Under the pieces are notes generated by a model. That model was not told the origin of the DNA and did not search any database. It saw nothing but the letters and a program-made list of their open reading frames with translations. A DNA stretch of 64,000 bases, from assembly GCA_040902305.1 (NCBI GenBank), contig JBBDXN010000145.1:3734-67733 (forward strand), in the 5' to 3' direction. A program made the position numbers and the translations under genes. This stretch comes from Candidatus Rokuibacteriota bacterium. GTDB taxonomy: Bacteria; Methylomirabilota; Methylomirabilia; Rokubacteriales; CSP1-6. Shown piece by piece: positions 6,104-50,090 of this stretch. How positions within the stretch are numbered: position 1 is the first letter of the stretch; every line of letters starts with the position of its first letter.

Positions 6104-7407
6104 CAGGCCCGCTCCGGCTCGGCCTTGACCTTCATGATCCGCGGCCCCTCCATGTCCACCACCGTCCAGTGATGGCCGGCCGCGTGGAGCGTCGCTCCCG
6201 GCCCGGGCACCGTGCCGAGCCGGCGCAGGATGAACCCGGCGATCGTCTGGTAGTCCGGCGAATCCTCGAGCGGCAGCCCGGCCTGCTCGCGGAGATCCCG
6301 GATCGTCGCGGTGCCGTCGATGATATAAGAGCCGTCCGGCCGCCGGGTGACGGATTCGAGCCGCGGGCTGTCGCGCTCGTCCCGGATCTCTCCCACGATC
6401 TCCTCGAGCAGATCCTCCGTGGTCACGAGGCCGCCGACCTGCCCGTACTCGTCCACCACCAGGGCCAGGTGCAGGCGGCTCCGCTGGAACTGGCGCAGCA
6501 CCTCGCTGACCCGGGCGACCTCGGGCACGAAGATCGGGGGGTGGAGGAGCCGCTCGAGCACGGGGGCCGTGCCCTCGGCCGCGCAGCGAAAGAGATCCTT
6601 GATCACCACCACGCCCACCGTGTCCTCCAGCGTGCCGCGGTACACCGGCAGCCGGGTGCGCCCCAGCTCCGCCGCCCGCTTCAGCACCTGCTCCGGCGGT
6701 GTGGCAATGTCCAGCCCGAGGATATTCGGCCGCGGCACCATGACCGAGCGCACCGCGGTGTCGGTGAACTGGAACACGCGGTGGACGAGATCGCTCTCCT
6801 GCCGCTCGAACACGCCCAGGGAGGCGCCTTCCCGGATCAGGTACTTCACCTCCTCCTCGGAGACCAGCGGCGCCGGCGGGGCGTCCCGCTGCCCGATCAG
6901 CGTGAGCACGATGCGGGTGGACCGGGTGAGGATCCGGCCGGGCCCGGCGACCGCACGCACCAGCCAGGCGATGGGCCAGGCCACGCGCGCGGCCCAGCCC
7001 TCGGGATTGCGCAGGGCCAGCGCCTTCGGCGTCAGCTCGCCCAGCACCAGGGAGGCAAAGGTGATCAGCACGATCACGATGCCGAGGGCCACCGCGCCGC
7101 TCCACCCTTGCGCGCCCGGCAGGTCGAGGCCCGCGAGCCAGGGCTGCAGCGCGTCCACCGCCGCGGCGCCGCCGACCGCCGAGGCCAGCGTGCTGACCAG
7201 GGTGATCGCGATCTGGATGGTGGCGAGAAAGCGCTCGGGTTCCCGCTTGAGCGCTTCCGCCACCGCCGCTCCGGAGACTCCCTCGTCGCGAAGCTGGGCG
7301 AGGCGGCTCGGCCGGGCGGAGACCAGCGCGATCTCGGAGCCGGCGAAGAACCCGTTGGCGACGATCGCCACGCCGATCAGGATCAGCTCGATCCAGATGC
7401 CGTCCAT
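6103..7407 (-). CDS. hemolysin/CNNM-family protein (DUF21 - CBS pair - CorC_HlyC)
   Basis: ATG 7407 within track ORF 6103..7677, preceded by GGAGGTGAT. MDGIWIELILIGVAIVANGFFAGSEIALVS (DUF21), CBS region, C-terminal ...DGSYIIDGTATIRDL...TIAGFILRRLG. Confidence 0.85.
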   Translation of the reverse strand: MDGIWIELILIGVAIVANGFFAGSEIALVSARPSRLAQLRDEGVSGAAVAEALKREPERFLATIQIAITLVSTLASAVGGAAAVDALQPWLAGLDLPGAQGWSGAVALGIVIVLITFASLVLGELTPKALALRNPEGWAARVAWPIAWLVRAVAGPGRILTRSTRIVLTLIGQRDAPPAPLVSEEEVKYLIREGASLGVFERQESDLVHRVFQFTDTAVRSVMVPRPNILGLDIATPPEQVLKRAAELGRTRLPVYRGTLEDTVGVVVIKDLFRCAAEGTAPVLERLLHPPIFVPEVARVSEVLRQFQRSRLHLALVVDEYGQVGGLVTTEDLLEEIVGEIRDERDSPRLESVTRRPDGSYIIDGTATIRDLREQAGLPLEDSPDYQTIAGFILRRLGTVPGPGATLHAAGHHWTVVDMEGPRIMKVKAEPERA

Positions 7408-14670: not shown

Positions 14671-15503
14671 CCCCGGAGCCGCCGCTGCGCGCGCCGCGCC
14701 ACCGCCCAGTAGCGGAGCGCCGGCGGCACGAGCGGCAGGCCGCCCCTCGCCGCGGTGGCCATGATGCGCAGCAGGCGCTCGCGCCGACCGTCCCACCGCA
14801 GACCATAGGCGGCGCGAATCGCGGGCGGCAAGAGCCCGACCGCCGGCAGCGCGGCCAGCCAGACCGCGGGGCCGACCCCGCGGGGGACGGGGGGCGCGAT
14901 GATGTCGCGCGAGAGGCGCCGGGCCGTGTCGGTGACCTCGATCGCCCCGGAGGCCAGCATCGCGGCCAGGTAGTCGCGGAGCTCGGTTTCCGTCCGGGGC
15001 AGCCGTCCCGGCGGGATCCCCAGCGCGCGCTCGATGCCACTCGCCTCGGCGCAGTACCGATCGGCCTCCGCCGGCGTCACCGGCCGCACGAAGAGGCGGT
15101 AGGTCAGCAGGAACGACTCGATCAGGGTGGCGTGCACCCAGGTGAGCAGCTCCGGGTCGTGGGCGCTGTAGGAGGCGCCGGCGGCCGCGCCGCCCGCGGG
15201 CTCATCGAGCCGCCCGTGGACGCGGTCGTGGATGGCATTGATCCGCGCGACGGCGCTCGCCGATGCCTCCTCGGATTCGAAGGTCAGCGCGAGCATGGTG
15301 TGGAGCGTCCGGCGCAGGCGCCGCAGGCGCCCCCACGGCTCGGTGGCGAACCCGCTGTGCTCGGCCACCCCGCGCGCCACCTTCGGATGGGCGAGCTGGA
15401 GCAGGATGGCCCGGCCCCAGCCGGCCAGGAGGACTCGCTCCCGATGTATCCTCCAGGCCATGCCGTCGGCGACGAAGGGCTCGGCTGCCAGCCGGGCGCG
15501 CAT
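14667..15503 (-). CDS. DUF2236 / MpaB-family oxygenase-like protein
   Basis: ATG 15503 in track ORF 14667..16157: ...MAWRIHRERVLLAGWGRAILLQLAHPKVARGV...INAIHDRVHG... Confidence 0.75.
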   Translation of the reverse strand: MRARLAAEPFVADGMAWRIHRERVLLAGWGRAILLQLAHPKVARGVAEHSGFATEPWGRLRRLRRTLHTMLALTFESEEASASAVARINAIHDRVHGRLDEPAGGAAAGASYSAHDPELLTWVHATLIESFLLTYRLFVRPVTPAEADRYCAEASGIERALGIPPGRLPRTETELRDYLAAMLASGAIEVTDTARRLSRDIIAPPVPRGVGPAVWLAALPAVGLLPPAIRAAYGLRWDGRRERLLRIMATAARGGLPLVPPALRYWAVARRAQRRLRG

Positions 15504-15590
15504 GGGGACATTATGCGCGCGGCCCGGAAACTTCGGGAGCCCGTCGACCGTTGTGTGGGCGTCACCCCTCATTCTCGAAAGGAGAGCGCC

Positions 15591-16151
15591 ATGCGTCGAG
15601 CCACCCCGCTCCTGGTCGCAGCCCTGCTGCTGACCGGCCTGATCGCTTCCGGCCTGCCGTGGGCCGGGCCGGTCGCCGCCCTCGAAGTCGGCCAGAAAGC
15701 GCCCGACTTCACCCTTCCCGGCCCGGGCGGCAAGCCGGTGAAGTTGTCCGACCTGACCCCCAAGGGCCCCGTCGTCGTCTTCACCTTCATCCAGGCGTTC
15801 ACGAATACCTGAACCAAGGAGCTCCTCGGCTTCGAGGAGAGCCTGCCCAAGTTCCAGGCCGCCGGCGCCCAGGTCGTCGGCGTGAGCGCCGACCATGCGG
15901 CGACGCTGGACGCCTTCACCAAGCAGTTCAAGATCAGCTACCCCCTGCTGTCCGATTTCCGGCGCACGATGCTGCCCGGGTACGACGCGCTGGTCACCGA
16001 CGAGAAGAGCCCGATCTTCCGCTACGCCAAGCGCGCCTACTACGTCATCGACAAGACCGGCGTGGTCCGGTACATGAAGATCCAGGACAATGCCCTCGAC
16101 CTGCTGGATCCCGCCGACGTGCTGAAGGCCCTCAAGGAGTCGGGCGCGTGA
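15591..16151 (+). CDS. exported peroxiredoxin (AhpC/TSA, BCP-like) with predicted selenocysteine at codon 74 (TGA 15810-15812 read through)
   Basis: ATG 15591 after AAAGGAGAG. Track ORFs 15132..15812 and 15882..16151 share a frame. The joined product reads ...FTFIQAFTNT-U-TKELLGFEESLPKFQAAGAQVVGVSADH...ISYPLLSDF, with the TGA at the peroxidatic Cys position. Signal peptide MRRATPLLVAALLLTGLIASG. Confidence 0.8.
15821..15842 (+). promoter_or_regulatory. SECIS-like hairpin downstream of UGA 15810
   Basis: GCUCCUCG-GCUU-CGAGGAG(A)GC, a 7-bp core stem. The apical loop starts with G, 17 nt after the UGA. Confidence 0.5.
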
Positions 16152-16705
16152 GCGCATCCCGGCTGGCCGCAGCCGGGGTGATCACGGCGGCGCTCTGGGC
16201 CGGGGTCACGGCGGCGCAGCCCGCCGCCGCGCCCCCGGCCTGGGAAAAGCTGGGCGTGCAGGCCTACGAATCGCCCAAGCCCGCGCCCGCCTTCGCGCTG
16301 CCCGCGCTCGACGGCCGCACCGTGCGGCTGGAGGACCAGAAGGGCAAGGCCCTGCTGCTGTTCTTCTGGGCCACCTGGTGAACGACCTGCCGGGAGGAGT
16401 TGCCTTCCGTCAACCGGCTGTACGAGGAGTTCAAGGGACAGGGGCTCCAGGTGCTGCTGATCAGCTTCCGCGAGAGCAGGGAGGTCGTGCAGCGCGCGGT
16501 GACCGCGCGCGGCTATACCGCGCCCGTGCTGCTCGACACCTCCGGCGATCTCACCGGCCGGGTCTACGGCGTCTTCGGGCCGCCCACCGCGTATCTGGTG
16601 GACCGCGAGGGGCGCCTGATCGGCCGGATGATCGGCGGCCGGGAGTGGAGCGGCGCCGCCGCGCGCGATCTCATCCGCGACTTCGTCGCGCCCCGCCCGC
16701 GATGA
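16148..16705 (+). CDS. exported TlpA/ResA-like thioredoxin-fold protein with predicted selenocysteine (U-T-T-C motif; TGA 16379-16381 read through)
   Basis: GTG 16148 (GTGA overlap with the peroxiredoxin stop). The tail of track ORF 15263..16381 and ORF 16400..16705 share a frame. The joined product reads ...KGKALLLFFWATW-U-TTCREELPSVNRLYEEF...GPPTAYLVDREGRLIG. Confidence 0.8.
16391..16409 (+). promoter_or_regulatory. SECIS-like hairpin downstream of UGA 16379
   Basis: C-GGGAGG-AGUUG-CCUUCC-G (one G-U pair). The apical loop begins 17 nt after the UGA, with G at loop position 2. Confidence 0.45.
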
Positions 16706-16739
16706 CGCGTCGGTCCTAGCAGGTTCCAGCCGGGCGCTA

Positions 16740-16792
16740 CCCTCACCCCGACCCACTCCCTCGCCGAGGGAGAGGGGGTCAGGGTGAGGGGG
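16740..16792. repeat. palindromic repeat (variant of the CCCTCACCC...CCCTCTCCC family) in a convergent intergenic region
   Basis: CCCTCACCCCGACCCACTCCCTC-GCCG-AGGGAGAGGGGGTCAGGGTGAGGGGG, between stops 16705 (+) and 16819 (-). Could act as a bidirectional terminator. Confidence 0.7.
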
Positions 16793-16818
16793 CGGGCCGG
16801 ACGCGGGACACGCATTCG

Positions 16819-17400
16819 TCAGGGCCCGGCGGCCAGCGGGGGTGGGCCCGCCTGGTCCCGGGCGTGGCCCGCCATCGCCACGAGTGCGATCACCAGATCG
16901 TTGATCTGCGCGCGGGCGGCCGGATCGGCGAGCTTGCCGTCCTGGAAGTGGCCGGACTCGAGGTACACGCTGGTCGGCACCACCAGCGCCCCGAACCAGG
17001 CCAGCACCGCGCGGAGCTGCCAGTCCACGCCCAGGTAGTGATGAAGCGTGGCGCCCATCGCCACGATGCCCACCGGCTTGGCGCGCAGCGCCTCCAGCGG
17101 CGTGAGATCGAGCAGGTTCTTGAGCGCGCCGGTGAACGAGGCGCGATAGACGGGGCTCGCGAGCAGGACCAGGTCGGCCTCGGCGATCGCGCCGACGACG
17201 CGCGCGGTGTCGTCGGGGTAGCGATCGAGCGGGCGCCCGTCCGCGAAGGAGACCCGATGCTCGCCCAGGCTCAGCACGGTGGCGGAAATGTTCCCCCGAT
17301 CGCCAACGTGGTCGGCCGCGCGCTCCGCCGCGAAGCGCACCGCTGCGTCGAGACGCCCCGGGGGCGTCACCGCGCCCACGACGGCCAGGAGCCGCGTCAC
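16819..17400 (-). CDS. NADPH-dependent FMN reductase (SsuE/MsuE-like)
   Basis: GTG 17400 (GTGA overlap) in track ORF 16819..18408: VTRLLAVVGAVTPPGRL...DLVLLASPVYRASFTGALKNLLD... Confidence 0.75.
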   Translation of the reverse strand: MTRLLAVVGAVTPPGRLDAAVRFAAERAADHVGDRGNISATVLSLGEHRVSFADGRPLDRYPDDTARVVGAIAEADLVLLASPVYRASFTGALKNLLDLTPLEALRAKPVGIVAMGATLHHYLGVDWQLRAVLAWFGALVVPTSVYLESGHFQDGKLADPAARAQINDLVIALVAMAGHARDQAGPPPLAAGP

Positions 17401-34523: not shown

Positions 34524-35051
34524 TCAGGGTCCGTTGCGGTGACTTGGCCCACTGCGGCGCCAGGTGCCGGATTTGCCTCCGGACTTCTCGACGAGGCAGA
34601 GGTTCGTCAAGACGACGCCCTTGTCGATGGCCTTCACCATGTCGTACACGGTGAGGCCCGCCACCGCGGCCGCGATCAGCGCTTCCATCTCCACGCCGGT
34701 CTTGTCCACCGTGCGCACGCGGGCGTGCACCGTGATGGTGGAGCGGCGCGAGTCCAGCGCGAACTCGACGTCCACCCCCGTGATGCGCAGCGGATGGCAG
34801 AGCGGGATCAGGTCGGGCGTGCGCTTGGCCGCCATGATGCCCGCGGTGCGGGCGACCCCGAGCACGTCGCCCTTGGCGAGCTGGCCGGCGCGGACCGCGG
34901 CCAGGGTCGCCGCCTTCATCTTGAGGGTGACGCGGGCCGCCGCCGCCCGGACGGTCTCCGCCTTGGCGGAGACATCCACCATCCGCGCCTCACCGGCAGG
35001 GGTCAGGTGGGAGAGGCCACGAAAGCCCGGCATCTCCCGGGACGGGGACAT
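34524..35051 (-). CDS. moaC: cyclic pyranopterin monophosphate synthase MoaC
   Basis: ATG 35051 in track ORF 34524..35165: ...[18 protein letters not shown]...[30 protein letters not shown]...[23 protein letters not shown]. The exact start is uncertain. Confidence 0.9.
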
Positions 35052-35355: not shown

Positions 35356-35385
35356 GTTATACTCCCCGGCTCTTCGACGTGTCAA
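35356..35385 (-). promoter_or_regulatory. sigma70-like promoter: TTGACA - 18 nt - TATAAC, upstream of DUF465-moaC
   Basis: -35 at 35385-35380 (contains the TGA stop of the upstream ATPase gene), -10 at 35361-35356. Confidence 0.4.
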
Positions 35386-36479
35386 GGCTTGGCGTGGCGC
35401 AGGAGATGGGGCGCCGTCGCCTTGAAGTGCGCGGTCACCGGACTGCCCGGCGCGAAGCCCAACTCCTCCACGGAGCGCTGCGTCACGAGGGCCACCAGCG
35501 GGAATCCGCAGTCAATGATCACACGTACATGTGGACCATTCGGCACCAGGCGCTGGACCCGCCCGCCGAGCCGGTTGAACTCCCGCGTCCCGCCCGGCTT
35601 GGGGCCGCCGGGAAAGACCGCCACGTCCTCCGGTCTCACGCAGAGGCGCACGCGCTCGCCCGGCGCGGCCCGCTGCGCCACCTCGACCATCTGTCCCCCG
35701 ACGTCCACCAGGGCCCGATCCTGATTCCACTCCACGACCCGCCCGTCGAGAATGGTCTCCACCCCCACGAATCGCGCCACGTCCTCCGACGCGGGGGCCC
35801 GGAAGACCTGGGCCGCGTCGTCGAGCTGGACCAGGCGGCCGCCCATGAGGACGCCGACCCGATCGCCCAGCGTCATGGCCTCGGCGCGATCGTGCGTCAC
35901 CAGCACGGTGGTCGTGCGCTCCTGGCGCAGGATCCCGGCGAAATCCTCGAGGAGCGCCTCGCGGGTGGGCGGGTCGAGGGAGGAGAACGGCTCGTCCAGC
36001 AACAGCAGCTCGGGCTCGAGCACGAGCGCGCGGGCGAGCGCGGTCCGCTGGGCTTCGCCCCCCGAGAGCGTCCGGGCCTGGCGGGAGGCCAGATGCGCGA
36101 TGCCGAGCCGGGTGAGCCACGCGTCCACCTGGGGCGCGGTCCGCCCGGCGGCCACCCCGCGAAAGCGGAGCCCGAGGGCGACGTTGTCCCGGACGGTGGT
36201 GTCGGCGAGCAACGGCTCCTGGAAGACGCTGGCCATGCGCCGCCTCACCGCGAGGCCATCGGACCGGCTCACCGGCTCGCCCTGGAATCGCACGCTGCCC
36301 ACGGTCGGCACCTCGAGCAGGCCCAGCAGGCGGAGCAGGGTGGACTTGCCCGCGCCGTTCGGGCCGATGACCGCGAGCACCTGGCCCGCGTCCACCGCCA
36401 GCTCGGGGATCTCCAGCACGGTTCCGCCGGCGCGGATGACCTGGACGGCATGGAGCGCGACGACGGGCGGCGGCGTCAT
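35382..36479 (-). CDS. tupC: ABC transporter ATP-binding protein with C-terminal TOBE domain; probable tungstate TupC partner of TupAB
   Basis: ATG 36479 (ATGA overlap with the modC stop) in track ORF 35382..37691: ...GPNGAGKSTLLRLL...LSGGEAQRTALARAL...LLLLDEPFSSLD...; TOBE-like tail ...NRLGGRVQRLVPNGPHVRVIIDCG. The TupC assignment is by context. Confidence 0.7.
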   Translation of the reverse strand: MTPPPVVALHAVQVIRAGGTVLEIPELAVDAGQVLAVIGPNGAGKSTLLRLLGLLEVPTVGSVRFQGEPVSRSDGLAVRRRMASVFQEPLLADTTVRDNVALGLRFRGVAAGRTAPQVDAWLTRLGIAHLASRQARTLSGGEAQRTALARALVLEPELLLLDEPFSSLDPPTREALLEDFAGILRQERTTTVLVTHDRAEAMTLGDRVGVLMGGRLVQLDDAAQVFRAPASEDVARFVGVETILDGRVVEWNQDRALVDVGGQMVEVAQRAAPGERVRLCVRPEDVAVFPGGPKPGGTREFNRLGGRVQRLVPNGPHVRVIIDCGFPLVALVTQRSVEELGFAPGSPVTAHFKATAPHLLRHAKP

Positions 36480-37606
36480 GCCGACGGCAGGACGTGGATC
36501 GAGCCGCGATGCAGCGAGAATCGCCAGTGGCGGTCGCGGTCGATCTCGAGAATCTCGTAGACGAGCCGGGGCACCTCGACCTCCAGATCGTAGTCGCCCT
36601 GCGCGGGCGGCCCGGGCTCGTCGAGCCGGAAGTAGAGCGTCCAGATCGTGCCGAAGTCCACCTCGCGCACGATGGTGCCGGACATGAGATTCATGTGGTG
36701 GGCGGAGTCCACCCCGTCGCGGTCCTTCCGGATCAGGCGGACGTACTCCGGACGGATGAAGAAGGCGAGCGGGCTGTCCGGCGCGGGCAGGTACGAGCGG
36801 ATCGGCGAGTTCACGGCCTCGAGCGTCTGGCCACGCCAGCGGAACTGGATGCGGTCCGGCGTGGCCTTGAGCGTCACACCCTGGAGCAGGTTGCGCAGCC
36901 CCATGATGCGGGCCACGCTGCGCGAGGACGGCTGCCAGAGCAGCTCCGAACGCGGCGCGGCCTGGATCACGCGGCCGTCCTCGTACACCACGATGCGGTC
37001 GCCGAGCCGGTAGGCCTCGGTGAGGTCGTGGGTGACCAGCACCGCCGCGGTGCCCCAGCCGGTGAGGATGCTCCGCAGCTCGTCGCGGAGCGCCTGGCGG
37101 AGCGGCAGGTCGAGCGCGGACAGCGGCTCGTCCAGCAGGAGCAGCGAGGGGTCCGTGGCGAGGGCGCGCCCGAGCGCCACCCGCTGGCGCTGGCCACCCG
37201 ATAAGTCGCGCGGGTAGCGGTCCGCGTGCGCTTCGATCGAGAGCCGGGCCAGCACGTCGTTCACCCGCTGCCCGCGCTCCGCGCGGCTCCGGTCGCGAAG
37301 GCCGAAGCCCACGTTCTGGCGGACGGTGAGATGCGGGAACAGCGCATAGCCCTGGAAAACGTAGCCCACCCGCCGCCGCTGGGGCCGTAGGTCGATCCCG
37401 GCCGCCGCGTCGAAGAGGACCTGGTCGTTCACCACGATACGACCCGCATCGGGACGAACGAGCCCGGCCAGGCATTGCAGGGTGAGGGTCTTGCCGGATC
37501 CGGACGGGCCGAAGAGCACCGCGACGCCGTCGCCCGCGTGCCACTCCACGTCCAGGGTGAACCCGGGCAAGGATTTGCGCACGCTGACCTCGAGCCGGCT
37601 CGTCAT
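36476..37606 (-). CDS. modC: molybdate ABC transporter ATP-binding protein
   Basis: Track ORF of 376 aa: ...VAVLFGPSGSGKTLTLQCLAGLVRPDAGRIVVNDQVLFDAAAGIDLRPQRRRVGYVFQGYALFPHLTV..., close to E. coli ModC over the N-terminal half. C-terminal Mop/TOBE-like domain. Confidence 0.9.
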   Translation of the reverse strand: MTSRLEVSVRKSLPGFTLDVEWHAGDGVAVLFGPSGSGKTLTLQCLAGLVRPDAGRIVVNDQVLFDAAAGIDLRPQRRRVGYVFQGYALFPHLTVRQNVGFGLRDRSRAERGQRVNDVLARLSIEAHADRYPRDLSGGQRQRVALGRALATDPSLLLLDEPLSALDLPLRQALRDELRSILTGWGTAAVLVTHDLTEAYRLGDRIVVYEDGRVIQAAPRSELLWQPSSRSVARIMGLRNLLQGVTLKATPDRIQFRWRGQTLEAVNSPIRSYLPAPDSPLAFFIRPEYVRLIRKDRDGVDSAHHMNLMSGTIVREVDFGTIWTLYFRLDEPGPPAQGDYDLEVEVPRLVYEILEIDRDRHWRFSLHRGSIHVLPSA

Positions 37607-38268
37607 GCCGCCCGCGCTCCGAGGCGATTGGCGACGACGAGCACGAGGCAGGAGAGGACCGTGAGCACCGCCACCAGCCCCAGCGCCTCACCGCTCTCCC
37701 CGGTCTGCACCGCGGTGTAGATGGAGAGCGGCACGGTCGCGGTGCGGCCGGGAATGTTCCCGGCGAGCATCAGGGTCGCGCCGAACTCGCCCAGCGCCCG
37801 CGCGAAGGCGAGCACGACCCCGGCCAGGATGCCGTTGCGGGCGAGCGGCAGCGTGACCTCGAGCACGGTGCGCAGCTCCGAGCGGCCGAGGGTGTAGGCG
37901 GCGCGCTCGAGGTCGCGGTCCACCGACTCGATGGCGGCGCGCACCGTGCGGACCAGCAGCGGCAGCGCCATCACGGTGGCGGCGATCACCGCCGCGTACC
38001 AGGTGAAGGCCACCGTGAAGCCCGACAGCTCGTACAGTGGCGCGCCCAGCACGCCGCGCCGGCCCAGCAGCACGATCAGGTAGTAGCCGACCACGGTGGG
38101 CGGCAGCACCAGCGGCAGCGTCACCAGCAGGTCCACGACGCTCTTGCCCCAGAAGCGTCGACGCGCCAGCACGTAGGCGATCGGAATGCCCACGAGCGCG
38201 TTGAGGGCCGTGGCGGCCACCGCGACCTGGAGCGACAACCGGAGAGCGGAGAGATTGTCCGGGCTCAT
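37603..38268 (-). CDS. modB: molybdate ABC transporter permease
   Basis: Track ORF of 221 aa: ...LPLVLPPTVVGYYLIVLLG...EAAYTLG...ARALGEFGATLMLAGNIPGRT... (EAA loop). Confidence 0.9.
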   Translation of the reverse strand: MSPDNLSALRLSLQVAVAATALNALVGIPIAYVLARRRFWGKSVVDLLVTLPLVLPPTVVGYYLIVLLGRRGVLGAPLYELSGFTVAFTWYAAVIAATVMALPLLVRTVRAAIESVDRDLERAAYTLGRSELRTVLEVTLPLARNGILAGVVLAFARALGEFGATLMLAGNIPGRTATVPLSIYTAVQTGESGEALGLVAVLTVLSCLVLVVANRLGARAA

Positions 38269-38386
38269 GACGGATCCACATGACGCCCCGGTAGTATGCC
38301 ATGCCCGAATGCGCGGGCGATCTCCAGCACCGCCACGAGCGCGAGCGGGCGCCGGAGCGCGGCCGGCCTGAGCCGCAACGCGCGTG

Positions 38387-39157
38387 CTATCGCAGGCCCG
38401 CCGGCGGCGGCTGGAAGCCGAAGCACGCGAGGGTCGCCTGGCCCTCGCGGCTCACGAGCACACCGATCAAGGCCCGGGCGAGCGCGGGCTGGCGCGTTCC
38501 CGCCATGACGGCCACCGGGTATACCACCGGTCGATAGGTGTCCTCCGCCGGCCGGAAGGCCTCCTTCACCGCCTGGCCGCGGACCGCCGCGTCGGTGGTG
38601 TAGACGAACCCCGCGTCCACCTCGCCCCGGGTGACGTAGTCCAGCGCCTGGCGCACGTTCTCCGCGAAGATCAGCTTGGACCGCACCCGATCCCAGAGCC
38701 CGAGCGCCCGGAGGCTCTCCTCCGCGTACTGGCCCGCGGGCACAGTCCTGGGGTTGCCCACCACGATCCGGGTGATCCGCGCCTCGGCGAGATCGGCGGC
38801 CTTGGTGATGTCCACCCGTGAATCGGCGGGCTTGATCACGGTGAGCAGGTTCCGCGCGAAGGCCCGGCGGGTGCCGGGCACGATGAGCTGGCGCTTCTCG
38901 AGCTCGTCCATCTGGACCACCGACGCTGAGATGAACAGGTCAGAAGGCGCTCCCGCCTCGATCTGCTTCTGCAGCGCGCCCGAGGAGCCCCAGTTGTAGA
39001 GCACGGTCACGCCGGGTCGGGCCGCCGCGAAACCCTTGCCGACCTCGGTGACCGCGTCCTTCATGCTGATCGCCGCCGACACCGTCAGCGACTGGGCATC
39101 CGCGGCGGGAGCCACGCCCACCAGGACCGAGAGCGCCAGCGTGATCCACCGCATCAT
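38387..39157 (-). CDS. modA: molybdate ABC transporter substrate-binding protein
   Basis: Track ORF of 256 aa: signal peptide, ...LTVSAAISMKDAV...SSGALQKQIEAGAPSDLFISAS...VPAGQYA...VDAGFVYTTDA... Confidence 0.9.
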   Translation of the reverse strand: MMRWITLALSVLVGVAPAADAQSLTVSAAISMKDAVTEVGKGFAAARPGVTVLYNWGSSGALQKQIEAGAPSDLFISASVVQMDELEKRQLIVPGTRRAFARNLLTVIKPADSRVDITKAADLAEARITRIVVGNPRTVPAGQYAEESLRALGLWDRVRSKLIFAENVRQALDYVTRGEVDAGFVYTTDAAVRGQAVKEAFRPAEDTYRPVVYPVAVMAGTRQPALARALIGVLVSREGQATLACFGFQPPPAGLR

Positions 39158-39213
39158 GGCCGTGAGTGCCTCCAGGCCCCATGGTACCGCCGCCGGCTCC
39201 TCTGGGCAGGCGC

Positions 39214-39909
39214 TCAGGCGCGGCGGCGCTGCTGGATGACGCTCAGCGCCCAGTTCACCAGGAAGGTGATCAGCAGCAGGATCAGCGAGAGCGCGATCGC
39301 GATGTCGAAGTTGCCCTTGCCGGTCTCGAGTACGGTGGCGGTGGTGAGCACGCGGGTGGAGCCGCGGATATTGCCGCCCAGCATCATGGAGGCGCCCACC
39401 TCGGAGATCACGCCGCCGAAGCCCGCCATCACCGCGGCCAGCATCGGCAGCCGCGCTTCCTTGAGCAACACCCAGATCATCTGGAGGCGCGAGGCGCCCA
39501 GCCCGAGCATCTGCAGCCGGAACCGGTCCGGCACCTGCTGCACCGCGGCCAGCGTGAGGCCGGTGACAATGGGCACCGCGATCACGAACTGACCCGCCAC
39601 CATCGCCGACGGGGTGTAGAGCAGCTCGAGGAAGCCGAGCGCGCCGTTGCGCCAGAGGAGGATGGTCACGAACAGGCCCACCACCACCGGCGGCAGCCCC
39701 ATGCCGGTGTTCACGAGGCTGACCGCGAGGGCGCGGCCGGGGAAGCGCGAGAGCGCGAGCAGCGCGCCCAGCGGGATCCCGGCCAGGAGTGACAGGGCGG
39801 TCGCTCCCGCCGAGATCTGCAGCGACAGCCAGGTGATCTGCCAGACTTCGGGATCACCCGCCAGCAGCAGGCGGAACGCTTCGAGAACGCCCTGCCCGAA
39901 CAGTCCCAC
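39214..39909 (-). CDS. tupB: tungstate ABC transporter permease
   Basis: Track ORF of 231 aa: ...LLLAGDPEVWQITWLSLQIS...NTGMGLPPVVVGL...GFGGVISEVGASMMLGGNIRGSTRVLTTATVLETGKGNF... Confidence 0.85.
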   Translation of the reverse strand: MGLFGQGVLEAFRLLLAGDPEVWQITWLSLQISAGATALSLLAGIPLGALLALSRFPGRALAVSLVNTGMGLPPVVVGLFVTILLWRNGALGFLELLYTPSAMVAGQFVIAVPIVTGLTLAAVQQVPDRFRLQMLGLGASRLQMIWVLLKEARLPMLAAVMAGFGGVISEVGASMMLGGNIRGSTRVLTTATVLETGKGNFDIAIALSLILLLITFLVNWALSVIQQRRRA

Positions 39910-39924
39910 CGCGGACCGGGCCGG

Positions 39925-40767
39925 CTAGAGGTCTTCGTCCTTCTTGCCGGCCACCGGGACGAAGAGCGGCTGGCCGTACTTGTCCACCCCGAAGGTCTTG
40001 ATGACCGCCTGCGTCTCGGGCGTCAGCATGAAGTCGGCGAAGGCTTTCCCGCCCTTGGGGTTGACGCGCGGGCCGTTGGCCGGGTTCACCTCCATCACCG
40101 AGTAGATGTTGAGCAGCGGGCGGTCCTTCTCGACGAGGATCGGCAGGTCCACCCGCTTTTGGAACGCGAGAAACGTCGCCCGGTCGGTCAGGGTGTAGGC
40201 GCGCCGATCGTTGGCGATGCCGAGGGTCTGCCCCATGCCCTGCCCCGACTCGATGTACCACGCGCCCTTGGGCGCGATGCCCGCCTGCTTCCACAGGGCC
40301 AGCTCGAGGGTGTGGGTGCCCGACTTGTCACCACGCGAGGCGAAGCGCGACTGGCTCTGCGCGATGCGCTTGAGCGCGTCCACCGCCTTGGGCAGCCCCT
40401 TGATCTTCGCGGGATCGTCCGGCGGCCCGATGACGACGAAGTCGTTGTACATGACGAGGCGCCGGTTGGACATCTTGCCCTCGTCCACGTACTTCTTCTC
40501 GAGGCCTGGGGCGTGCGCGAGCGTGACGTCGGCCTCGCCGCGGGCGGCCAGGGCGAGCGCCTGGCCGGTGCCGACCGAGATGGTCTTCACGGTGAGCCCG
40601 CTGTTCTTCTCGAACATGGGCACCAGGACGTCGAGCAGCTCGGAGTCTTGGGTGCTCGTGGTGGTGGAGAGGATGACGATGTTCGATTGGGCGACTGCCG
40701 GCCCCGTCATGGACGGGAGCAGACCGACCGGCACCAGCCACAGAACCGCGGCGAGTCGAGCCATCAC
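39925..40767 (-). CDS. tupA: tungstate ABC transporter substrate-binding protein
   Basis: Track ORF of 280 aa: signal peptide, ...ILSTTTSTQDSELLDVLVPMFEK...VGTGQALALAARGEADVTLAHAP...MYNDFVVIGPPDDPA...SRGDKSGTH...GQGMGQTL... Confidence 0.85.
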   Translation of the reverse strand: MMARLAAVLWLVPVGLLPSMTGPAVAQSNIVILSTTTSTQDSELLDVLVPMFEKNSGLTVKTISVGTGQALALAARGEADVTLAHAPGLEKKYVDEGKMSNRRLVMYNDFVVIGPPDDPAKIKGLPKAVDALKRIAQSQSRFASRGDKSGTHTLELALWKQAGIAPKGAWYIESGQGMGQTLGIANDRRAYTLTDRATFLAFQKRVDLPILVEKDRPLLNIYSVMEVNPANGPRVNPKGGKAFADFMLTPETQAVIKTFGVDKYGQPLFVPVAGKKDEDL

Positions 40768-40904: not shown

Positions 40905-41757
40905 ATGCGACGATTCGATCTCGTTCTGCCGAGTAGCCTCGAAGACTGCCTGAAGATCCTCGCGGAGCACGGAGGCCGGGCCAAGCTGCTGGCCGGAGGC
41001 ACCGATCTCCTGCCCCAGATGAAGAACGGCGCGCTGCATCCCGCCCTGGTGGTGGACCTCTCGGGTATCGCCCGGGTTCGCCAGGTCCAGAACGGCAACG
41101 GCCTCCGCATCGGCGCCGCGGTCACCGCGCGCGAGCTCGAGGTGAGCCCGGCGCTGCGCGGCGCCTATCTCGCGATCGCGGAGAGCGCGGCCATGGTCGG
41201 CTCGCTCCAGGTCCGCAACCTGGCCACGGTGGGCGGCAACCTCTGCAACGCCGCGCCCTCGGCCGACATGGCCCCGCCGCTGGTGGCGCTGGAGGCCCAG
41301 GCGGTCATCGCGGGGCCGGGCGGCGAGCGGCGCGTGCCGGTGGCCGATTTTTTCACCGGGGTCCGCACGACCGTGCTGGCGCCGAACGAGCTGCTGGTCG
41401 AGCTGGTGGTGCCGGCGCCCGGGGCCCACTGCGGGGGCCAGTACCTGCGGCACACCCCGCGGCGCGAGCTCGACATTGCCGTCGTAGGGGTGGCTTCTCA
41501 GCTCACCATGGCCGCCGGCCGCTGCACCAAGGCGCGCATCGCGCTCGCGTCGGTGGCCCCGACGCCGATCCGCGCCACCGCGGTCGCTCGAGGGCCAGGC
41601 GGTGACGCCCGAGGCCATCGAGCGCGCGGCCGCGCTGGCGATCGAGGCGGCCAAGCCCATCGACGACCAGCGCGGCTCCATCGAGTTCCGCAAGCACCTG
41701 GTCCGCGTCCTCACCCGTCGCACGCTCACGACCGCGCTCGCCCGCGCGAGCGCCTGA
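40905..41757 (+). CDS. FAD-binding medium subunit of an XDH/CODH-family molybdenum hydroxylase (CoxM-like), with an apparent +1 frameshift near 41585
   Basis: Track ORF 40905..41792 is CoxM-like up to ...APTPIRATAV, then turns to Arg/Pro/His junk. The next frame reads LEGQAVTPEAIERAAALAIEAAKPIDDQRGSIEFRKHLVRVLTRRTLTTALARASA-stop (TGA 41755-41757), the expected CoxM C-terminus, 17 nt before the next gene. Confidence 0.75.
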
Positions 41758-41773
41758 TCCGGAGGCAGATCCC

Positions 41774-42265
41774 GTGGCCAAGCACATCCTGAGCTGTACC
41801 GTCAACGGCGAGCCGGTCGAGGTGCTCGTCCAGCCGTACGTCACCCTCCTCGACGCCCTGCGCGAGGACATCGGGCTCACCGGCCCCAAGGAAGGCTGCG
41901 GCACGGGCGACTGCGGCGCCTGCACCGTCCACGTGGACGGCAAGGTGGTGGCGAGCTGCCTGATGCTGGCCATGCAGGCCCGCGGCCGGAAGATTCGCAC
42001 CATCGAGGGCCTGGCATCCGCGGACACCACCCTGCACCCGCTGCAGGACGCCTTCGTCCGCCACGGGGTGCCCCAGTGCGGCTTCTGCATCCCGGGCGTC
42101 CTGATGGCGGCGGCCGCGCTGCTCGAGGAGAACCCGCGGCCCTCCGAGGAGGAGATCCGCTACGGCATCGCCGGCAATCTCTGCCGCTGCACCGGCTACA
42201 CCAAGATGGTAACCGCGATCAGCGAGGCGGCGGGCGCCCTCGCCTCGCAGAGGAGCGCTCGATGA
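41774..42265 (+). CDS. [2Fe-2S]-binding small subunit of the molybdenum hydroxylase (CoxS-like)
   Basis: Track ORF of 163 aa: ...GCGTGDCGACTV...CLMLA... and ...QCGFCIPG...CRCTGY... Confidence 0.9.
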   Translation: MAKHILSCTVNGEPVEVLVQPYVTLLDALREDIGLTGPKEGCGTGDCGACTVHVDGKVVASCLMLAMQARGRKIRTIEGLASADTTLHPLQDAFVRHGVPQCGFCIPGVLMAAAALLEENPRPSEEEIRYGIAGNLCRCTGYTKMVTAISEAAGALASQRSAR

Positions 42266-44587: not shown

Positions 44588-46033
44588 ATGAAGGCAGGCG
44601 AGATCTTCGTCGCGGGGAAGTGGCAGGCGACGCGGTCGGGTGAGACCTACCAGCCGATCAACCCGGCCAACGAGGAGCCGATCTCGGCGGTCGGCAAGGG
44701 CGACGAGCGCGACATCGATCTGGCGGTGACGGCGGCCCGCAAGGCCTTCGACGAGGGCCCGTGGCCGAAGATGTCGCCCCACGAGCGCGGCCGCATCGTC
44801 TGGCGCCTCGGCGACCTGATCCAGCAGAACCTCGACGAGATGGCCCGGCTCGAGAGCCTCTGCACCGGCAAGACCATGTTCGACTCGGGCAAGGTCGAGA
44901 TCCCGTTCGCGGCCGAGGTCTTCCGCTACTACGCGGGCTGGGCCACCAAGATCCACGGCGAGACGCTCGGCCTGCGCGACAACGCGTTCACCTTCACGCT
45001 GCGCCAGCCGGTGGGGGTGGTCGGGGCGATCGTGCCCTGGAACTTCCCCTTCCTGCTCTCGTCCTGGAAGATCGCCCCCGCGCTGGCCGCGGGCAACACG
45101 ATGGTGATCAAGCCCGCGTCGCAGACCCCGCTCACCGCGCTGCGCTTCGCCGAGATCTGCCAGGAGGCGGGGGTGCCGGAGGGCGTGTTCAACGTGGTGA
45201 CCGGGCCGGGCGGCAAGGTGGGCATGGCCCTGGTGCGGGATCCGCGCGTCGACAAGATCGCCTTCACCGGCTCCACCGAGGTCGGCCGGCAGATCATGCG
45301 CGAGGCGGCGGGCACGCTCAAGCGCCTCTCGCTCGAGCTGGGCGGCAAGTCGCCCAACATCGTGTTCGCGGACGCGGACATGGACGCGGCGGTGCGCGGC
45401 GCGCTCACCGGCATCTTCTACAACAAGGGCGAGGTGTGCGCGGCCGGCTCGCGGCTCTTCCTGGAAGACTCGATCCACGACCAGTTCATGTCCAAGCTCA
45501 CCGACCGGGTCAAGAGCCTGAAGGTCGGCGACCCGATGGACAAGACCACCCGCATGGGGCCGGTGGTGTCGAAGGGCCAGATGGAGACCGTGCTGTCCTA
45601 CATCGAGTCCGGCAAGCAGGAAGGGGCGCGGGTGGTGGCGGGCGGCGGCCGGGCCGACGTCGGCACCGGCAAGGGCTACTTCATTCAGCCCACCATCTTC
45701 GACGGGGTCACCAACGAGATGAAGATCGCCCGCGAGGAGATCTTCGGGCCGGTGCTCTCGGTGATCCCGTTCCGCTCGGTCGAGGACGGCATCGCCCAGG
45801 GCAACCACACCTCCTACGGCCTGGCCGCCGCGGTGTGGACGCGAGACGTCTCCAAGGCGCTGAAGGCGGCGAAGGCGATCCGGGCGGGCACGGTGTGGGT
45901 CAACGCCTACAACCTCTTCGACGCGGCGCTGCCGTTCGGCGGCTTCAAGGAGTCGGGCTTCGGCCGCGAGATGGGGTCGGTGGGGCTCGACAACTACACC
46001 GAGGTCAAGACCGTCTGGGTCGACCTGTCGTAG
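44588..46033 (+). CDS. NAD(P)-dependent aldehyde dehydrogenase
   Basis: Track ORF of 481 aa, preceded by AGGAGG: ...VPWNFPFLL...FTGSTEVGR...LELGGKSP...NKGEVCAAGSR...EEIFGPV... Confidence 0.95.
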   Translation: MKAGEIFVAGKWQATRSGETYQPINPANEEPISAVGKGDERDIDLAVTAARKAFDEGPWPKMSPHERGRIVWRLGDLIQQNLDEMARLESLCTGKTMFDSGKVEIPFAAEVFRYYAGWATKIHGETLGLRDNAFTFTLRQPVGVVGAIVPWNFPFLLSSWKIAPALAAGNTMVIKPASQTPLTALRFAEICQEAGVPEGVFNVVTGPGGKVGMALVRDPRVDKIAFTGSTEVGRQIMREAAGTLKRLSLELGGKSPNIVFADADMDAAVRGALTGIFYNKGEVCAAGSRLFLEDSIHDQFMSKLTDRVKSLKVGDPMDKTTRMGPVVSKGQMETVLSYIESGKQEGARVVAGGGRADVGTGKGYFIQPTIFDGVTNEMKIAREEIFGPVLSVIPFRSVEDGIAQGNHTSYGLAAAVWTRDVSKALKAAKAIRAGTVWVNAYNLFDAALPFGGFKESGFGREMGSVGLDNYTEVKTVWVDLS

Positions 46034-46053: not shown

Positions 46054-48288
46054 ATGCGCTCGCCGTCCGCCGCTGACATCCGGCACGACCTGGTCCTGGT
46101 GGGCGGCGGTCACACCCACATCCAGGTGCTCAAGCGGTGGGCCATGGGCCCCGTGCCGGGGGCGCGCCTGACCCTCGTCGTGGACCGGCCGATCGCGGTG
46201 TACTCCGGCATGGTGCCGGGCTTCGTGGCCGGCCAGTACTCCCGGGAAGACCTCGAGATCGACGTGCGGCCCCTCGCGCTCCGCGCGGGGGCGCGCTGCA
46301 TCGTGGCCGCCGCCTCCGGGCTCGACACGGCCGCGCGGCGCCTCGCGCTCCGTGGCCGCCCGCCGATCGCCTACGACACGGTCTCCTTCGACGTGGGCTC
46401 CACGGTGGCCGGGCTCGAAGTGCCCGGCGTCCGCGAGCACGCGCTCCCCACCCGCCCCATCGGCGATTTCGTCCGTCGCGTGGACGAGGTGCCGGCCACG
46501 GCGCGGGGTCGCGACCTCTTTCGGGTCGTCGTGGTCGGCGCGGGCGCCGGAGGCGTCGAGGTCGCCTTCGCCCTCGCCGCGCGACTGGGCCGCGAGCGTG
46601 CCGGCCGCGTCGAGGTGCTGCTCCTCGAGTCCGGTCCGCGGGTGCTGCCCGGCTACGCGGCGAGCGCGGCCGGGCGCGTCGAGGCCGCCGCGGCGGCGCG
46701 GGGGATCGCGATCCGCGTGGGCGCGCGCGTCGCCCAGGTCGAGGGCGATGCGGTGCGCCTGGAAGGCGGCGAGCGGCTGCCCGCCGACGGGGTGGTCTGG
46801 GTGGCCGGCGCCGCCGCGCTCCCGATCTTCGACGGCTCCGGGCTCGAGACGGACGAGGCCGGCTTCGCGCGGATCCGCCCCACGCTCCACTGCGTGGGGC
46901 ACGACGACACGAGAACGGTGGGCGACTGCGCGGCGTGGACCGCGGGCCCGGGCCTGGCCAAGGCCGGCGTGTACGCGGTCCGCCAGGGCCCGGTGCTCGC
47001 GCACAACCTGATCGCGCGCCTCCGCGGCCGGCGGCTCCGCGCCTACCGCCCGCAGCGCGACTTCCTCTCGCTCCTGAACCTGGGCGACGGCCACGCGATC
47101 GGAACCAAGTGGGGCGTCTCGGTCCAGGGCCGTCGCGTGTTCGCGCTCAAGAACTGGATCGACCGCCGCTTCGTGCGCCGCTTCCAGGTGCTCGATCAGG
47201 ACGGCGCGGTCACGCCCGACTTCGCGGCCGCGCCCATGCCCGGCGGGGACATGCTCTGCGGCGGCTGCGCGGCCAAGGTGGGCGAGTCCTCGCTCACCCG
47301 CGCGCTCGAGCGGCTCGGCGTCCCGAGCTGCCCCGCCGTCGTCCTGGGCCTGGCCCAGCCCGACGACGCGGCCGCGGTGGAGAGCGAGCGCGGCGAGATC
47401 GTCGCCGCCACCGTCGACTCCTTCCGCGCCTTCGCCGACGATCCCTACCTGGTCGGCCGCGTCGCGGCGGTGAACGCGGTCAGCGATCTCTGGGCCAAGG
47501 GCGTGGCGCCGCGGTTCGCGCTGGCCCAGGTGAGCGTGCCGGACACCGAGCCCGCGCGGGCGGAGGAGACGCTCTACCAGGTGATGGCGGGCGCCCGCGC
47601 GGCGCTGGACGCCGACGGCGTCACCCTCGTGGGCGGCCACACCACGACGGGGCCGGAGCTGGTGGTGGGCTTCGCGGTCTGGGGCTTCGCGGCCTCGGCG
47701 GATGCGCTGATCCGCATCGGGGGCGTCGCGCCGGGGGATCAGCTCATCCTGACCAAGCCGCTCGGCACCGGTGTGATCCTCCAGGCCGACATGCGCGGGC
47801 TGGCGCGGGGCGAGTGGGTGGAGGCGGCCGACGCGTCCATGCTCCGCTCCAATGGATCGGCCGCGCGGGCGATGGCCGCGCGGCGGCCGACCGCCGCCAC
47901 CGACGTCACCGGCTTCGGACTGGCCGGGCACCTGGGCGGGATGCTGCGCGCGAGCAAATGCTCCGCGGTGCTCGACCTCGCCGCGCTGCCCGCCCTGCCC
48001 GGCGCGGTGGCCCTGCTGACCCGGGGCGTGCGGAGCACCGCCCACCCCGAGAACGCCCGGGCCCGGCGCGCCATCCTCGTGGAGCCGGAGGCCGGGACGC
48101 ATCCGGCGCTGGATCTGCTCTTCGACCCGCAAACCTCGGGCGGGTTGCTGCTCGGAGTCTCGCGAGATCGGAGCATGGCGATGCTGGCGGCGCTGCGCGA
48201 GGCCGGCGACGAGCGCGCCGCCATCATCGGCGAGGTCACGCCGCCGCGACCCGACGGGGCGCTGATCCGGGTGGTTGCAACCGCCTAG
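46054..48288 (+). CDS. selD: fusion protein: FAD-dependent pyridine nucleotide-disulfide oxidoreductase (NDH-2-like) + selenide, water dikinase SelD
   Basis: ATG 46054 in track ORF 44761..48288; 744 aa. N-terminal part: LVLVGGGHTHIQVL...VVVVGAGAGGVEVAFAL. C-terminal part: ...GDMLCGGCAAKVGES...DDAAVV...VNAVSDLWAKG...LVGGHTT...LILTKPLGTG...ATDVTGFGLAGHL (AIR-synthase-like SelD fold, Cys form). Confidence 0.9.
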   Translation: MRSPSAADIRHDLVLVGGGHTHIQVLKRWAMGPVPGARLTLVVDRPIAVYSGMVPGFVAGQYSREDLEIDVRPLALRAGARCIVAAASGLDTAARRLALRGRPPIAYDTVSFDVGSTVAGLEVPGVREHALPTRPIGDFVRRVDEVPATARGRDLFRVVVVGAGAGGVEVAFALAARLGRERAGRVEVLLLESGPRVLPGYAASAAGRVEAAAAARGIAIRVGARVAQVEGDAVRLEGGERLPADGVVWVAGAAALPIFDGSGLETDEAGFARIRPTLHCVGHDDTRTVGDCAAWTAGPGLAKAGVYAVRQGPVLAHNLIARLRGRRLRAYRPQRDFLSLLNLGDGHAIGTKWGVSVQGRRVFALKNWIDRRFVRRFQVLDQDGAVTPDFAAAPMPGGDMLCGGCAAKVGESSLTRALERLGVPSCPAVVLGLAQPDDAAAVESERGEIVAATVDSFRAFADDPYLVGRVAAVNAVSDLWAKGVAPRFALAQVSVPDTEPARAEETLYQVMAGARAALDADGVTLVGGHTTTGPELVVGFAVWGFAASADALIRIGGVAPGDQLILTKPLGTGVILQADMRGLARGEWVEAADASMLRSNGSAARAMAARRPTAATDVTGFGLAGHLGGMLRASKCSAVLDLAALPALPGAVALLTRGVRSTAHPENARARRAILVEPEAGTHPALDLLFDPQTSGGLLLGVSRDRSMAMLAALREAGDERAAIIGEVTPPRPDGALIRVVATA

Positions 48289-48299
48289 ATCAACGGAGG

Positions 48300-48638
48300 C
48301 TACTGGGCCGCGCGCCGGCGGGCGGCCGGGGCGATCTCGACGACCAGCCCGCCGCCCCAGCCGTACTTGGCTTCGGAGAGTCGGCGGATCGTGGACACCA
48401 GATCCCGCTCGCCCCGAGCATCGACCACGCGGGCGCGCCCGCGGAAGGTCCGGCGGCCGACGCGCGCCCGCACCGCGGGCTCCGCGAGGAGATTCTGCAC
48501 CCAGTGCGCCTTCCGGCCGTGCTCGGCGACCAGGTAGTAGCGGCCCTGTTGGCGGGTGAACCAGATCTCGATCCGCCGGGCAAGCCCGCTGCGCCGCCCG
48601 GTCGTGGTCAGATAGAGGTATTTCAGCTCGGGGCTCAC
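48300..48638 (-). CDS. DUF385 / deazaflavin-dependent nitroreductase-family protein
   Basis: Track ORF of 112 aa: ...LYLTTTGRRSGLARRIEIWFTRQQGRYYLVAEHGRKAHWVQNLLAEPAVRARVG... Confidence 0.7.
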   Translation of the reverse strand: MSPELKYLYLTTTGRRSGLARRIEIWFTRQQGRYYLVAEHGRKAHWVQNLLAEPAVRARVGRRTFRGRARVVDARGERDLVSTIRRLSEAKYGWGGGLVVEIAPAARRRAAQ

Positions 48639-50084: not shown

Positions 50085-50090
50085 CGATCG

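Follow-up and report, generated by a model that had tools for sequence, protein, structure and literature searches.

A predicted selenocysteine codon at the catalytic site of a Rokubacterial peroxiredoxin gene and its conserved UxxC partner

The subject of this study is a pair of genes in a 64,000-nucleotide stretch of DNA from a Candidatus Rokuibacteriota bacterium (GenBank assembly GCA_040902305.1, contig JBBDXN010000145.1, positions 3,734 to 67,733 of the forward strand). The whole stretch is called the window here, and coordinates are counted from its first nucleotide (nt). At 15591..16151 on the forward strand lies a gene for a BCP/PrxQ-like peroxiredoxin, interrupted by an in-frame TGA at the codon where the catalytic cysteine (Cys) belongs. 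It is followed on the same strand, at 16148..16705, by a gene for a second protein of the thioredoxin fold, which also has an in-frame TGA at an active-site position. What looks like a "broken" peroxiredoxin gene is, almost certainly, single and intact, with an internal TGA that specifies a catalytic-site selenocysteine (Sec). The evidence from frame, alignment, conservation and RNA structure makes it highly probable that the TGA at 15810-15812 is a genuine Sec codon in a gene of the peroxiredoxin family.

The Peroxiredoxin Gene and Its Internal TGA

The peroxiredoxin gene has 186 codons and ends in TGA (16149-16151). A ribosome-binding site, AAGGAG, can be read in the sequence at 15579..15584 (forward strand), 6 nt before the ATG. 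Translation of 15591-16151 meets only one internal stop, the TGA at 15810-15812 (forward strand), which is codon 74. Sec is predicted there (U74), at the peroxidatic position of a T71-x-x-U74 motif, within the peptide GPVVVFTFIQAFTNT-U-TK. The N-terminus, M1-A30 (15591..15680, forward strand), is a predicted signal peptide with an RR pair, a hydrophobic core and VAA before LEVGQ. The N-termini of the orthologues are comparable, with an AxA end followed by (L/I)(E/D)VGQ, and the onset of the Pfam domain at residue 33 is consistent with such a peptide.

The window is 71% GC, and the third-position GC of real genes in it is near 0.9. On either side of the TGA at 15810 the value is 0.92-0.97. In the whole 64 kilobases (kb), only the TGAs at 15810 and 16379, the latter in the second gene, have a strong coding signal on both flanks. 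A third candidate, at 34526 on the minus strand, was rejected as a genuine stop that is followed by the start codon of the next gene. Scanning 15300-17000 for sigma-70 promoters and intrinsic terminators found none, a result that is uninformative for an organism of 71% GC.

An earlier note on this DNA had proposed that two open reading frames (ORFs), 15132..15812 and 15882..16151, share a frame, and that reading through the TGA yields a single 186-codon protein of the AhpC/TSA (BCP-like) type. Coordinates and translation confirm the common frame, and the single protein is borne out by a Pfam domain that crosses the TGA. The note had also placed the TGA at the codon of the catalytic Cys, and alignment to the peroxidatic Cys of 2ywn and 2cx3 and of eight Cys homologues puts it there. 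Its expectation that automatic callers would split the gene proved correct. In a Logan contig with an identical fragment the two genes are called as four ORFs, and most database orthologues are C-terminal fragments of 102-113 residues, named 'redoxin domain-containing protein [Methylomirabilota bacterium]'. A further set of Joint Genome Institute (JGI) calls (P0002-P0007, P0011, P0012) comes from short contigs that were seemingly translated with a code in which TGA is Trp.

Family Identity and the Catalytic Site

Domain searches of the read-through protein were run with Cys substituted at codon 74. Pfam AhpC-TSA (PF00578) matches residues 33-162, a span that includes the TGA, with an E-value of 1.9e-30 and 105.8 bits against a cut-off of 26; Redoxin (PF08534) scores 74 against a gathering threshold of 26.6. 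Solved BCP-type peroxiredoxins align over about 140 residues (2ywn, 2.8e-25; 2cx3, 1.8e-23; 3hjp, 7e-21), and the peroxidatic Cys of 2ywn (AFTQVCTKE), 2cx3 (AFSPVCTKEL) and 3hjp falls exactly on the TGA codon. Cys also occupies this column in all eight Cys-containing homologues aligned, namely the close relatives P0008 and P0009 (which share 54 and 53% identity with the window protein) and six distant ones.

Arg148, the catalytic Arg, is invariant in the alignment with the eight Cys homologues, and Thr or Ser is found at -3 in 35 of 40 orthologues (T71 in the window), the other five having Asn or Gly. The resolving Cys of BCP proteins, at +5, is absent; Leu takes its place in the window protein, and the mature protein is devoid of Cys altogether in 40/40 orthologues. 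These two features indicate a protein of the 1-Cys (here 1-Sec) type. It is not an equivalog of PrxU, since it scores 27.4 bits with the PrxU model NF040737, for which the cut-off is 270.

Conservation of the TGA Among Orthologues

The orthologues were collected with one genome per species. There are 39 orthologous loci, 58-89% identical and nearly all labelled Rokubacteria, Methylomirabilota or NC10. In every one the aligned codon is TGA; TGC, TGT, TAA and TAG are found in none. In distant homologues (archaea, Streptomyces, cyanobacteria and others) this codon is TGC or TGT. At the same time, TGA is the peroxiredoxin gene's own terminator in 35/40 orthologues, and it ends many of the window's high-GC ORFs (as judged at the third position). 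With TGA serving as a normal stop of this gene and this organism, the internal TGA points to context-dependent recoding rather than to a reassigned code. Conservation of the internal TGA and use of TGA as the normal stop, when taken together, exclude in our view a pseudogene, a sequencing error and a reassigned code, as can be seen by considering each in turn.

If the gene were a pseudogene or the product of an assembly error, the TGA would be a real stop and the two halves non-functional fragments. Gene callers do report fragments, and a few relatives carry lesions at or near the spot: deletions in P0001 and P0022, Gly in P0010, Leu in P0021 and a frameshift in L073. However, the TGA persists in 39/39 orthologues down to 58% identity, with the protein conserved and third-position GC at 0.92-0.97 on both sides, and the stop coincides exactly with the catalytic codon. 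The pattern recurs in the neighbouring gene, in 31/31 copies. As to assembly error, an independent Logan assembly has the same sequence. Decay or error of this kind is scarcely credible.

TGA could alternatively be a sense codon, for Trp or Gly, as in genetic codes 4 and 25. The full-length JGI orthologue calls (P0002-P0007, P0011, P0012) do show W at the position. But the same calls read on past the true stop and so acquire junk at the C-terminus (for example ...KASWCVGSPSSG), which indicates that the code was misapplied in them. Moreover, most window genes with high third-position GC, this one included, end in TGA; just two TGAs in the 64 kb have coding signal both before and after them; and a GC content of 71% is unlike that of code 4 and code 25 lineages. 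The chance that TGA is a sense codon here is negligible.

Internal TGA codons were also seen elsewhere. In genomes of Binatia, Deltaproteobacteria and Rokubacteria there is a second BCP subfamily, more distant, whose peroxidatic codon is likewise TGA (FYVLDFTPT-TGA-IKEL); its loci are L041, L053, L055, L056 and L077, near 6139-6202, and L064, at 449. At L022:466 (forward strand) there is a thioredoxin-like ORF with an in-frame TGA in VAWGSW-TGA-GC, which resembles the published 'UGC-containing TlpA family' of selenoproteins.

The Neighbouring Gene for a Predicted UxxC Selenoprotein

The gene at 16148..16705 (forward strand, 185 codons) encodes a TlpA/ResA-like (Prx-like) thiol:disulfide oxidoreductase and would be the second selenoprotein gene of the locus. 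Its GTG start (16148-16150) overlaps the peroxiredoxin stop TGA (16149-16151) in the sequence GTGA, and its ribosome-binding site, AAGGAG at 16134..16139 (forward strand), falls within the last part of the peroxiredoxin gene, 8 nt upstream of the GTG. An N-terminal signal or anchor sequence is predicted, as judged by eye. The in-frame TGA at 16379..16381 (forward strand) is codon 78, a predicted Sec codon at the first position of a CxxC motif (W-U78-T-T-C81), in the context FFWATW-U-TTC-REE.

In Pfam, the protein matches AhpC-TSA (5.4e-26), as well as Redoxin and Thioredoxin_8. The most similar entries of the PDB are proteins of the TlpA/ResA type, 3kcm (2e-28) and also ResA, and U78 aligns with the first Cys of their WCxxC motif (FWATWCPPCREE in 3kcm). 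The gene stands downstream of that for the peroxiredoxin in about 31 of the 39 loci, with TGA in 31/31 copies.

The hairpin after this TGA is at 16391..16409 (forward strand), where CGGGAGG (16391-16397) and CCUUCCG (16403-16409) enclose the loop AGUUG (16398-16402). As a selenocysteine insertion sequence (SECIS) it has a spacer of 16 nt, G as the second loop nucleotide and an energy of -9.5 kcal/mol, and it was found in 32/32 sequences. In these, pairing holds in 99.1% of cells, two double changes are compensatory, one position toggles between GU, AU and GC, and none of 500 shuffles reaches the covariation score. T-ending codons (CCT) and TTR codons are kept within the element in spite of a third-position GC of about 0.93. 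An independent and much cleaner case of Sec in the same operon is strong support for Sec decoding in this organism.

RNA Structure Downstream of the Peroxiredoxin UGA

In the peroxiredoxin gene, folding predicts a SECIS hairpin at 15817..15844 (forward strand). The upper stem of 7 base pairs (bp) is formed by CUCCUCG (15822-15828) and CGAGGAG (15833-15839) around the loop GCUU (15829-15832), and a lower stem of 3 bp by 15817-15819 and 15842-15844. The energy is -10.6 kcal/mol for the hairpin alone and -17.9 with the lower stem, and the base-pair probability in the ensemble is 0.97. The earlier note had described a hairpin here with an 8-bp stem: the hairpin and its GCUU loop are real, the stem (15822-15839) being of 7 bp and not 8. 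The note had correctly counted the loop G as the 17th nt after the UGA.

Rfam gave no match in the whole window at gathering thresholds, and a permissive scan of 15780-16460 gave chance hits only. As Rfam had no matching SECIS model, the published pattern model was scripted instead. In that model the loop is of 3-9 nt, the upper stem of at least 4 bp and a G is found at the first or second loop position; the spacing is 16-37 nt and the energy -7.5 kcal/mol or better (PMC13188914). With a spacer of 16 nt from UGA to loop and G as the first loop nucleotide, the GCUU hairpin lies within every one of these limits, so that the bacterial-SECIS-like geometry claimed in the note stands on all published points.

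Passing the model is not rare, however. Among control in-frame positions in the same genes 9.7% pass, which makes the hairpin weak evidence on its own, and its energy is only modestly unusual against shuffled sequences (z = -1.75; 9/200 shuffles fold as well). Across the family, hairpins downstream of the Sec sites are enriched over the same-gene controls (Mann-Whitney p = 3e-10, 1e-7). The structure common to the family is a longer hairpin of two helices at the same place (alignment A1, columns 24-32/50-58 and 34-38/42-46). Pairing is seen in 84% of its cells, and sliding the 3' partners by one to three columns brings this down to 31-53%. Eight of its pairs have changes on both sides, and its covariation score is 0.184 compared with 0.088 for shuffled alignments, none of 500 shuffles reaching the observed value.

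Selenium Metabolism in the Window

The gene at 46054..48288 (forward strand) encodes the selenophosphate synthetase SelD in its Cys form (LCGGCAAK), to which a pyridine-nucleotide-disulfide oxidoreductase domain is joined at the N-terminus. Both parts were identified with NCBIfam models, TIGR00476 at 272.9 bits (cut-off 125) and TIGR03169, Nterm_to_SelD, at 386.6 bits (cut-off 310). Ndh-SelD fusions with a CxxC motif have been described in the Global Ocean Sampling (GOS) study (PMC2398784). The phylum, too, is known for selenoproteins: one Methylomirabilota metagenome-assembled genome has 63 predicted selenoprotein genes, and Sec-type hydrogenases have been reported in Methylomirabilota by a survey that also scored selABCD across its genomes (PMC13582414).

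Evidence Against and Alternative Readings

Several observations weigh against Sec at 15810-15812 or against the exported peroxidase that it would create; they concern the RNA element, the Sec machinery and the protein. Over the 39 orthologues the GCUU hairpin shows no covariation, 52.7% of its cells being paired, the same as in shuffles. The hairpin is common to L001, L002, L003 and L005 only, the nearest relatives; for lack of covariation it was rejected as a family-wide SECIS and retained for the window's clade. Conversely, the window sequence gives the long family hairpin a probability of about 0.002. With the family hairpin improbable in the window and the GCUU hairpin limited to a clade, it follows that the post-UGA element was remodelled from clade to clade. 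In the window sequence the GCUU hairpin would be the best candidate for the SECIS that SelB binds after UGA 15810.

A wider look at alignment A1 (window 15827-15861) shows the RNA structure after the UGA changing form between clades of one orthologous family. The forms seen are the short GCUU hairpin, CGCG-GCUUCGA-CGCG, CCGGGC-UGGAC-GCCCGG and the long two-helix hairpin. The amino-acid changes at the hairpin (LL..EE as against IR..DA) look driven by pairing.

As for the machinery, selA, selB and tRNA-Sec were looked for in the 64-kb window and in 865 kb of fetched loci, and none of them turned up. With ARAGORN, the window and 41 related loci yielded no tRNA, and a motif scan of the 865 kb for SelA (GDKLLGGPQ) and a SelB-type G domain gave nothing. 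That this genome has selA, selB and tRNA-Sec is assumed from what has been published on the phylum. On its own, SelD also has a part in the selenouridine and selenium-cofactor pathways. Its gene adjoins those for molybdenum (Mo)-hydroxylase subunits (40905-44574) and an aldehyde dehydrogenase (44588-46033). Near it are also a ModE-like gene (48635-48970), MoaC (34524-34982), and ABC-transporter genes with TOBE domains and periplasmic solute-binding proteins (35382-40734). The SelD neighbourhood could thus also point to a selenium-cofactor Mo-hydroxylase trait.

A related question is which amino acid is inserted. The UGA might be recoded through SECIS and SelB, with Cys rather than Sec delivered by a tRNA-ReC (selC*)-type tRNA, or with either residue according to the supply of selenium. 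A tRNA-ReC allows UGA to be read as Cys when a SECIS lies downstream, and such tRNAs occur in some selenoprotein-rich lineages (Vargas-Rodriguez 2018, cited in PMC13582414). However, in that survey tRNA-ReC was associated with genomes of the UXXU type and was present in only about 2.3% of other Sec-type genomes (PMC13582414). SelD is encoded in the window, and P0008 and P0009 make close Cys forms of the protein with ordinary TGC or TGT codons. Since Cys forms made with ordinary codons exist, the fact that 39 species have kept the costly UGA route speaks for an advantage that Sec alone confers. Insertion of Cys is accordingly judged quite improbable, and Sec is the residue expected at codon 74.

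The remaining points concern the function of the protein. The Pro at -7 of the PxxxTxxC motif is replaced in all orthologues, by Ile in 36/40 and by Val in 4/40, and peroxidase chemistry is hence not guaranteed. No NCBIfam model exceeds its cut-off for the peroxiredoxin or for the neighbouring protein. Search of the loci for a conserved electron donor of the CcdA/DsbD type found none nearby; only the two-gene pair is conserved. The signal peptide is a prediction made by eye.

These features leave room for a genuine selenoprotein that is not a peroxidase, such as a thioredoxin-fold selenol oxidoreductase acting on another substrate (for instance a periplasmic reductase of disulfides or selenosulfides, or a protein that handles metals or metalloids), in which case the pair would not be a peroxiredoxin-reductant couple. 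The change of the active-site Pro to Ile or Val throughout, Asn or Gly in place of Thr at -3 in 5/40, the want of a curated peroxiredoxin equivalog model at cut-off, and the fact that most predicted redox selenoproteins are functionally uncharacterised are all in keeping with this possibility. On the other hand, the best structural relatives are characterised peroxiredoxins of the BCP type (E 1e-25 to 1e-21), Thr or Ser is kept at -3 in 35/40 along with the catalytic Arg, and some Cys homologues (L047, L059, L072) likewise have Val at -7. A function other than that of a peroxidase is therefore considered unlikely.

Proposed Mechanism and Function

In the proposed mechanism, the UGA at 15810-15812 would be decoded as Sec. 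Once the ribosome arrives at the UGA, the hairpin, starting 9 nt past it, would present its GCUU loop, which begins 17 nt after the UGA, and the loop would recruit SelB-GTP-Sec-tRNA(Sec), the selenium having come as selenophosphate from the SelD fusion (46054-48288). The product would be a pre-protein of 186 residues with a signal peptide, a BCP/PrxQ-type enzyme with Sec74 as its sole redox-active residue and with the conserved Arg148. It would act as a '1-Sec' peroxidase: peroxide would oxidise Sec74 to the selenenic acid, which an external reductant would recycle. The most likely recycler is the translationally coupled product of 16148-16705, with U78-x-x-C81, which is also predicted to be exported.

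A peroxiredoxin that is free of Cys, apparently exported and coupled to a UxxC partner hints at two selenoproteins working as a relay in the periplasm. That the cell has a periplasm agrees with the OmpA-type and beta-barrel outer-membrane proteins also encoded in the window. The simplest model, offered tentatively, is that the 1-Sec peroxidase is exported and is recycled by the UxxC protein translated along with it. More doubtful is the fuller version, in which the relay is made of selenoproteins throughout and the selenenic acid of the Cys-free peroxiredoxin is resolved in the periplasm by the Sec of its partner, via a selenenyl-selenide, with the SECIS of the peroxiredoxin remodelled between clades, from the long two-helix form to the short GCUU one, while that of the partner stayed fixed.

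Comparison with Known Systems

Peroxiredoxins with Sec (TxxU; COG1225/PF00578) have been known since PrxU of Eubacterium acidaminophilum (Sohling 2001), which was shown experimentally, and selenoproteins of this class were also found in Sargasso Sea and GOS data (PMC1088965, PMC2398784, PMC13188914). The window protein resembles them in its AhpC/TSA fold, in having Sec for the peroxidatic Cys in T-x-x-U, and in the hairpin that follows the UGA within the coding sequence. Unlike them, its clade has a predicted signal peptide, no Cys, and Ile or Val for the motif Pro, and it belongs to Methylomirabilota/Rokubacteria, in a fixed operon with the UxxC partner. It is thus a distinct, apparently exported and Cys-free subfamily of a protein class already known since 2001-2005. 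With BCP/PrxQ proteins of the Cys type, namely Sulfolobus tokodaii 2ywn/4g2e, Aeropyrum pernix 2cx3 and Sulfolobus Bcp4 3hjp, it has AFT..(C/U)TKE and the Arg in common. These structures differ in that they have Cys, mostly a resolving Cys at +5 (CTKELC), and Pro at -7, and are cytoplasmic.

The UxxC 'Prx-like' selenoproteins of Zhang and Gladyshev are predicted with high confidence, and one pair of neighbouring Prx and Prx-like 2 genes has been noted in GOS (PMC2398784). The gene at 16148-16705 resembles the UxxC Prx-like and TlpA/ResA-like proteins (PF00578 or cd02966) in its thioredoxin fold and its W-U-x-x-C motif with U at the first Cys, and differs from them in being coupled to a Sec-peroxiredoxin, the pair being kept across the phylum. 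With regard to the RNA, bacterial SECIS elements (bSECISearch; fdhF and fdnG of E. coli) are likewise hairpins inside the ORF just 3' of the UGA, with a small loop, an early G and a spacing of 16 nt. There is no sequence similarity to the E. coli elements, and in contrast to them the peroxiredoxin hairpin varies in form within one orthologous family.

Other Genes of the Window

Three further loci of the window may be mentioned. At 49575-50084 (forward strand) there is a Prx5-like redoxin of the Cys type (GLPGAFTPTCS), followed by a short TusA-like ORF (50085-50303, forward strand); its presence indicates that the genome also keeps cytoplasmic Cys-based peroxiredoxins. The CoxM-like flavin adenine dinucleotide (FAD) subunit of the Mo-hydroxylase (40905-41792, forward strand) is split over two frames. 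One frame holds FAD_binding_5 together with the first half of CO_deh_flav_C, and the second half (profile positions 51-101) shares the frame of 41488-41757. A frameshift near 41.59 kb is implied; an error, a pseudogene or a programmed shift could account for it. An IS200-like Y1 transposase ORF (54635-55510, reverse strand) lies in a patch of lower GC, 65% compared with 71% for the window.

Significance

The gene pair introduces no new principle, Sec-peroxiredoxins and UxxC Prx-like selenoproteins having been known for two decades and the richness of this lineage in selenoproteins having been documented. What makes it worth following is that the pair is conserved as one of selenoproteins throughout and that its SECIS has been remodelled in a clade-specific manner. 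Because the genes are miscalled as fragments or with Trp, the active-site half and the selenium dependence of an antioxidant system widespread in soil bacteria are invisible to automated surveys; correct calls give two more selenoproteins for each genome in a soil phylum that is common. If the proposed relay is true, it would be an all-selenium version of the peroxiredoxin-thioredoxin couple, so far uncharacterised. The pair also provides a conserved test case for why Sec is kept over Cys in extracytoplasmic redox enzymes, and for how far a bacterial SECIS can drift while still coding for protein.

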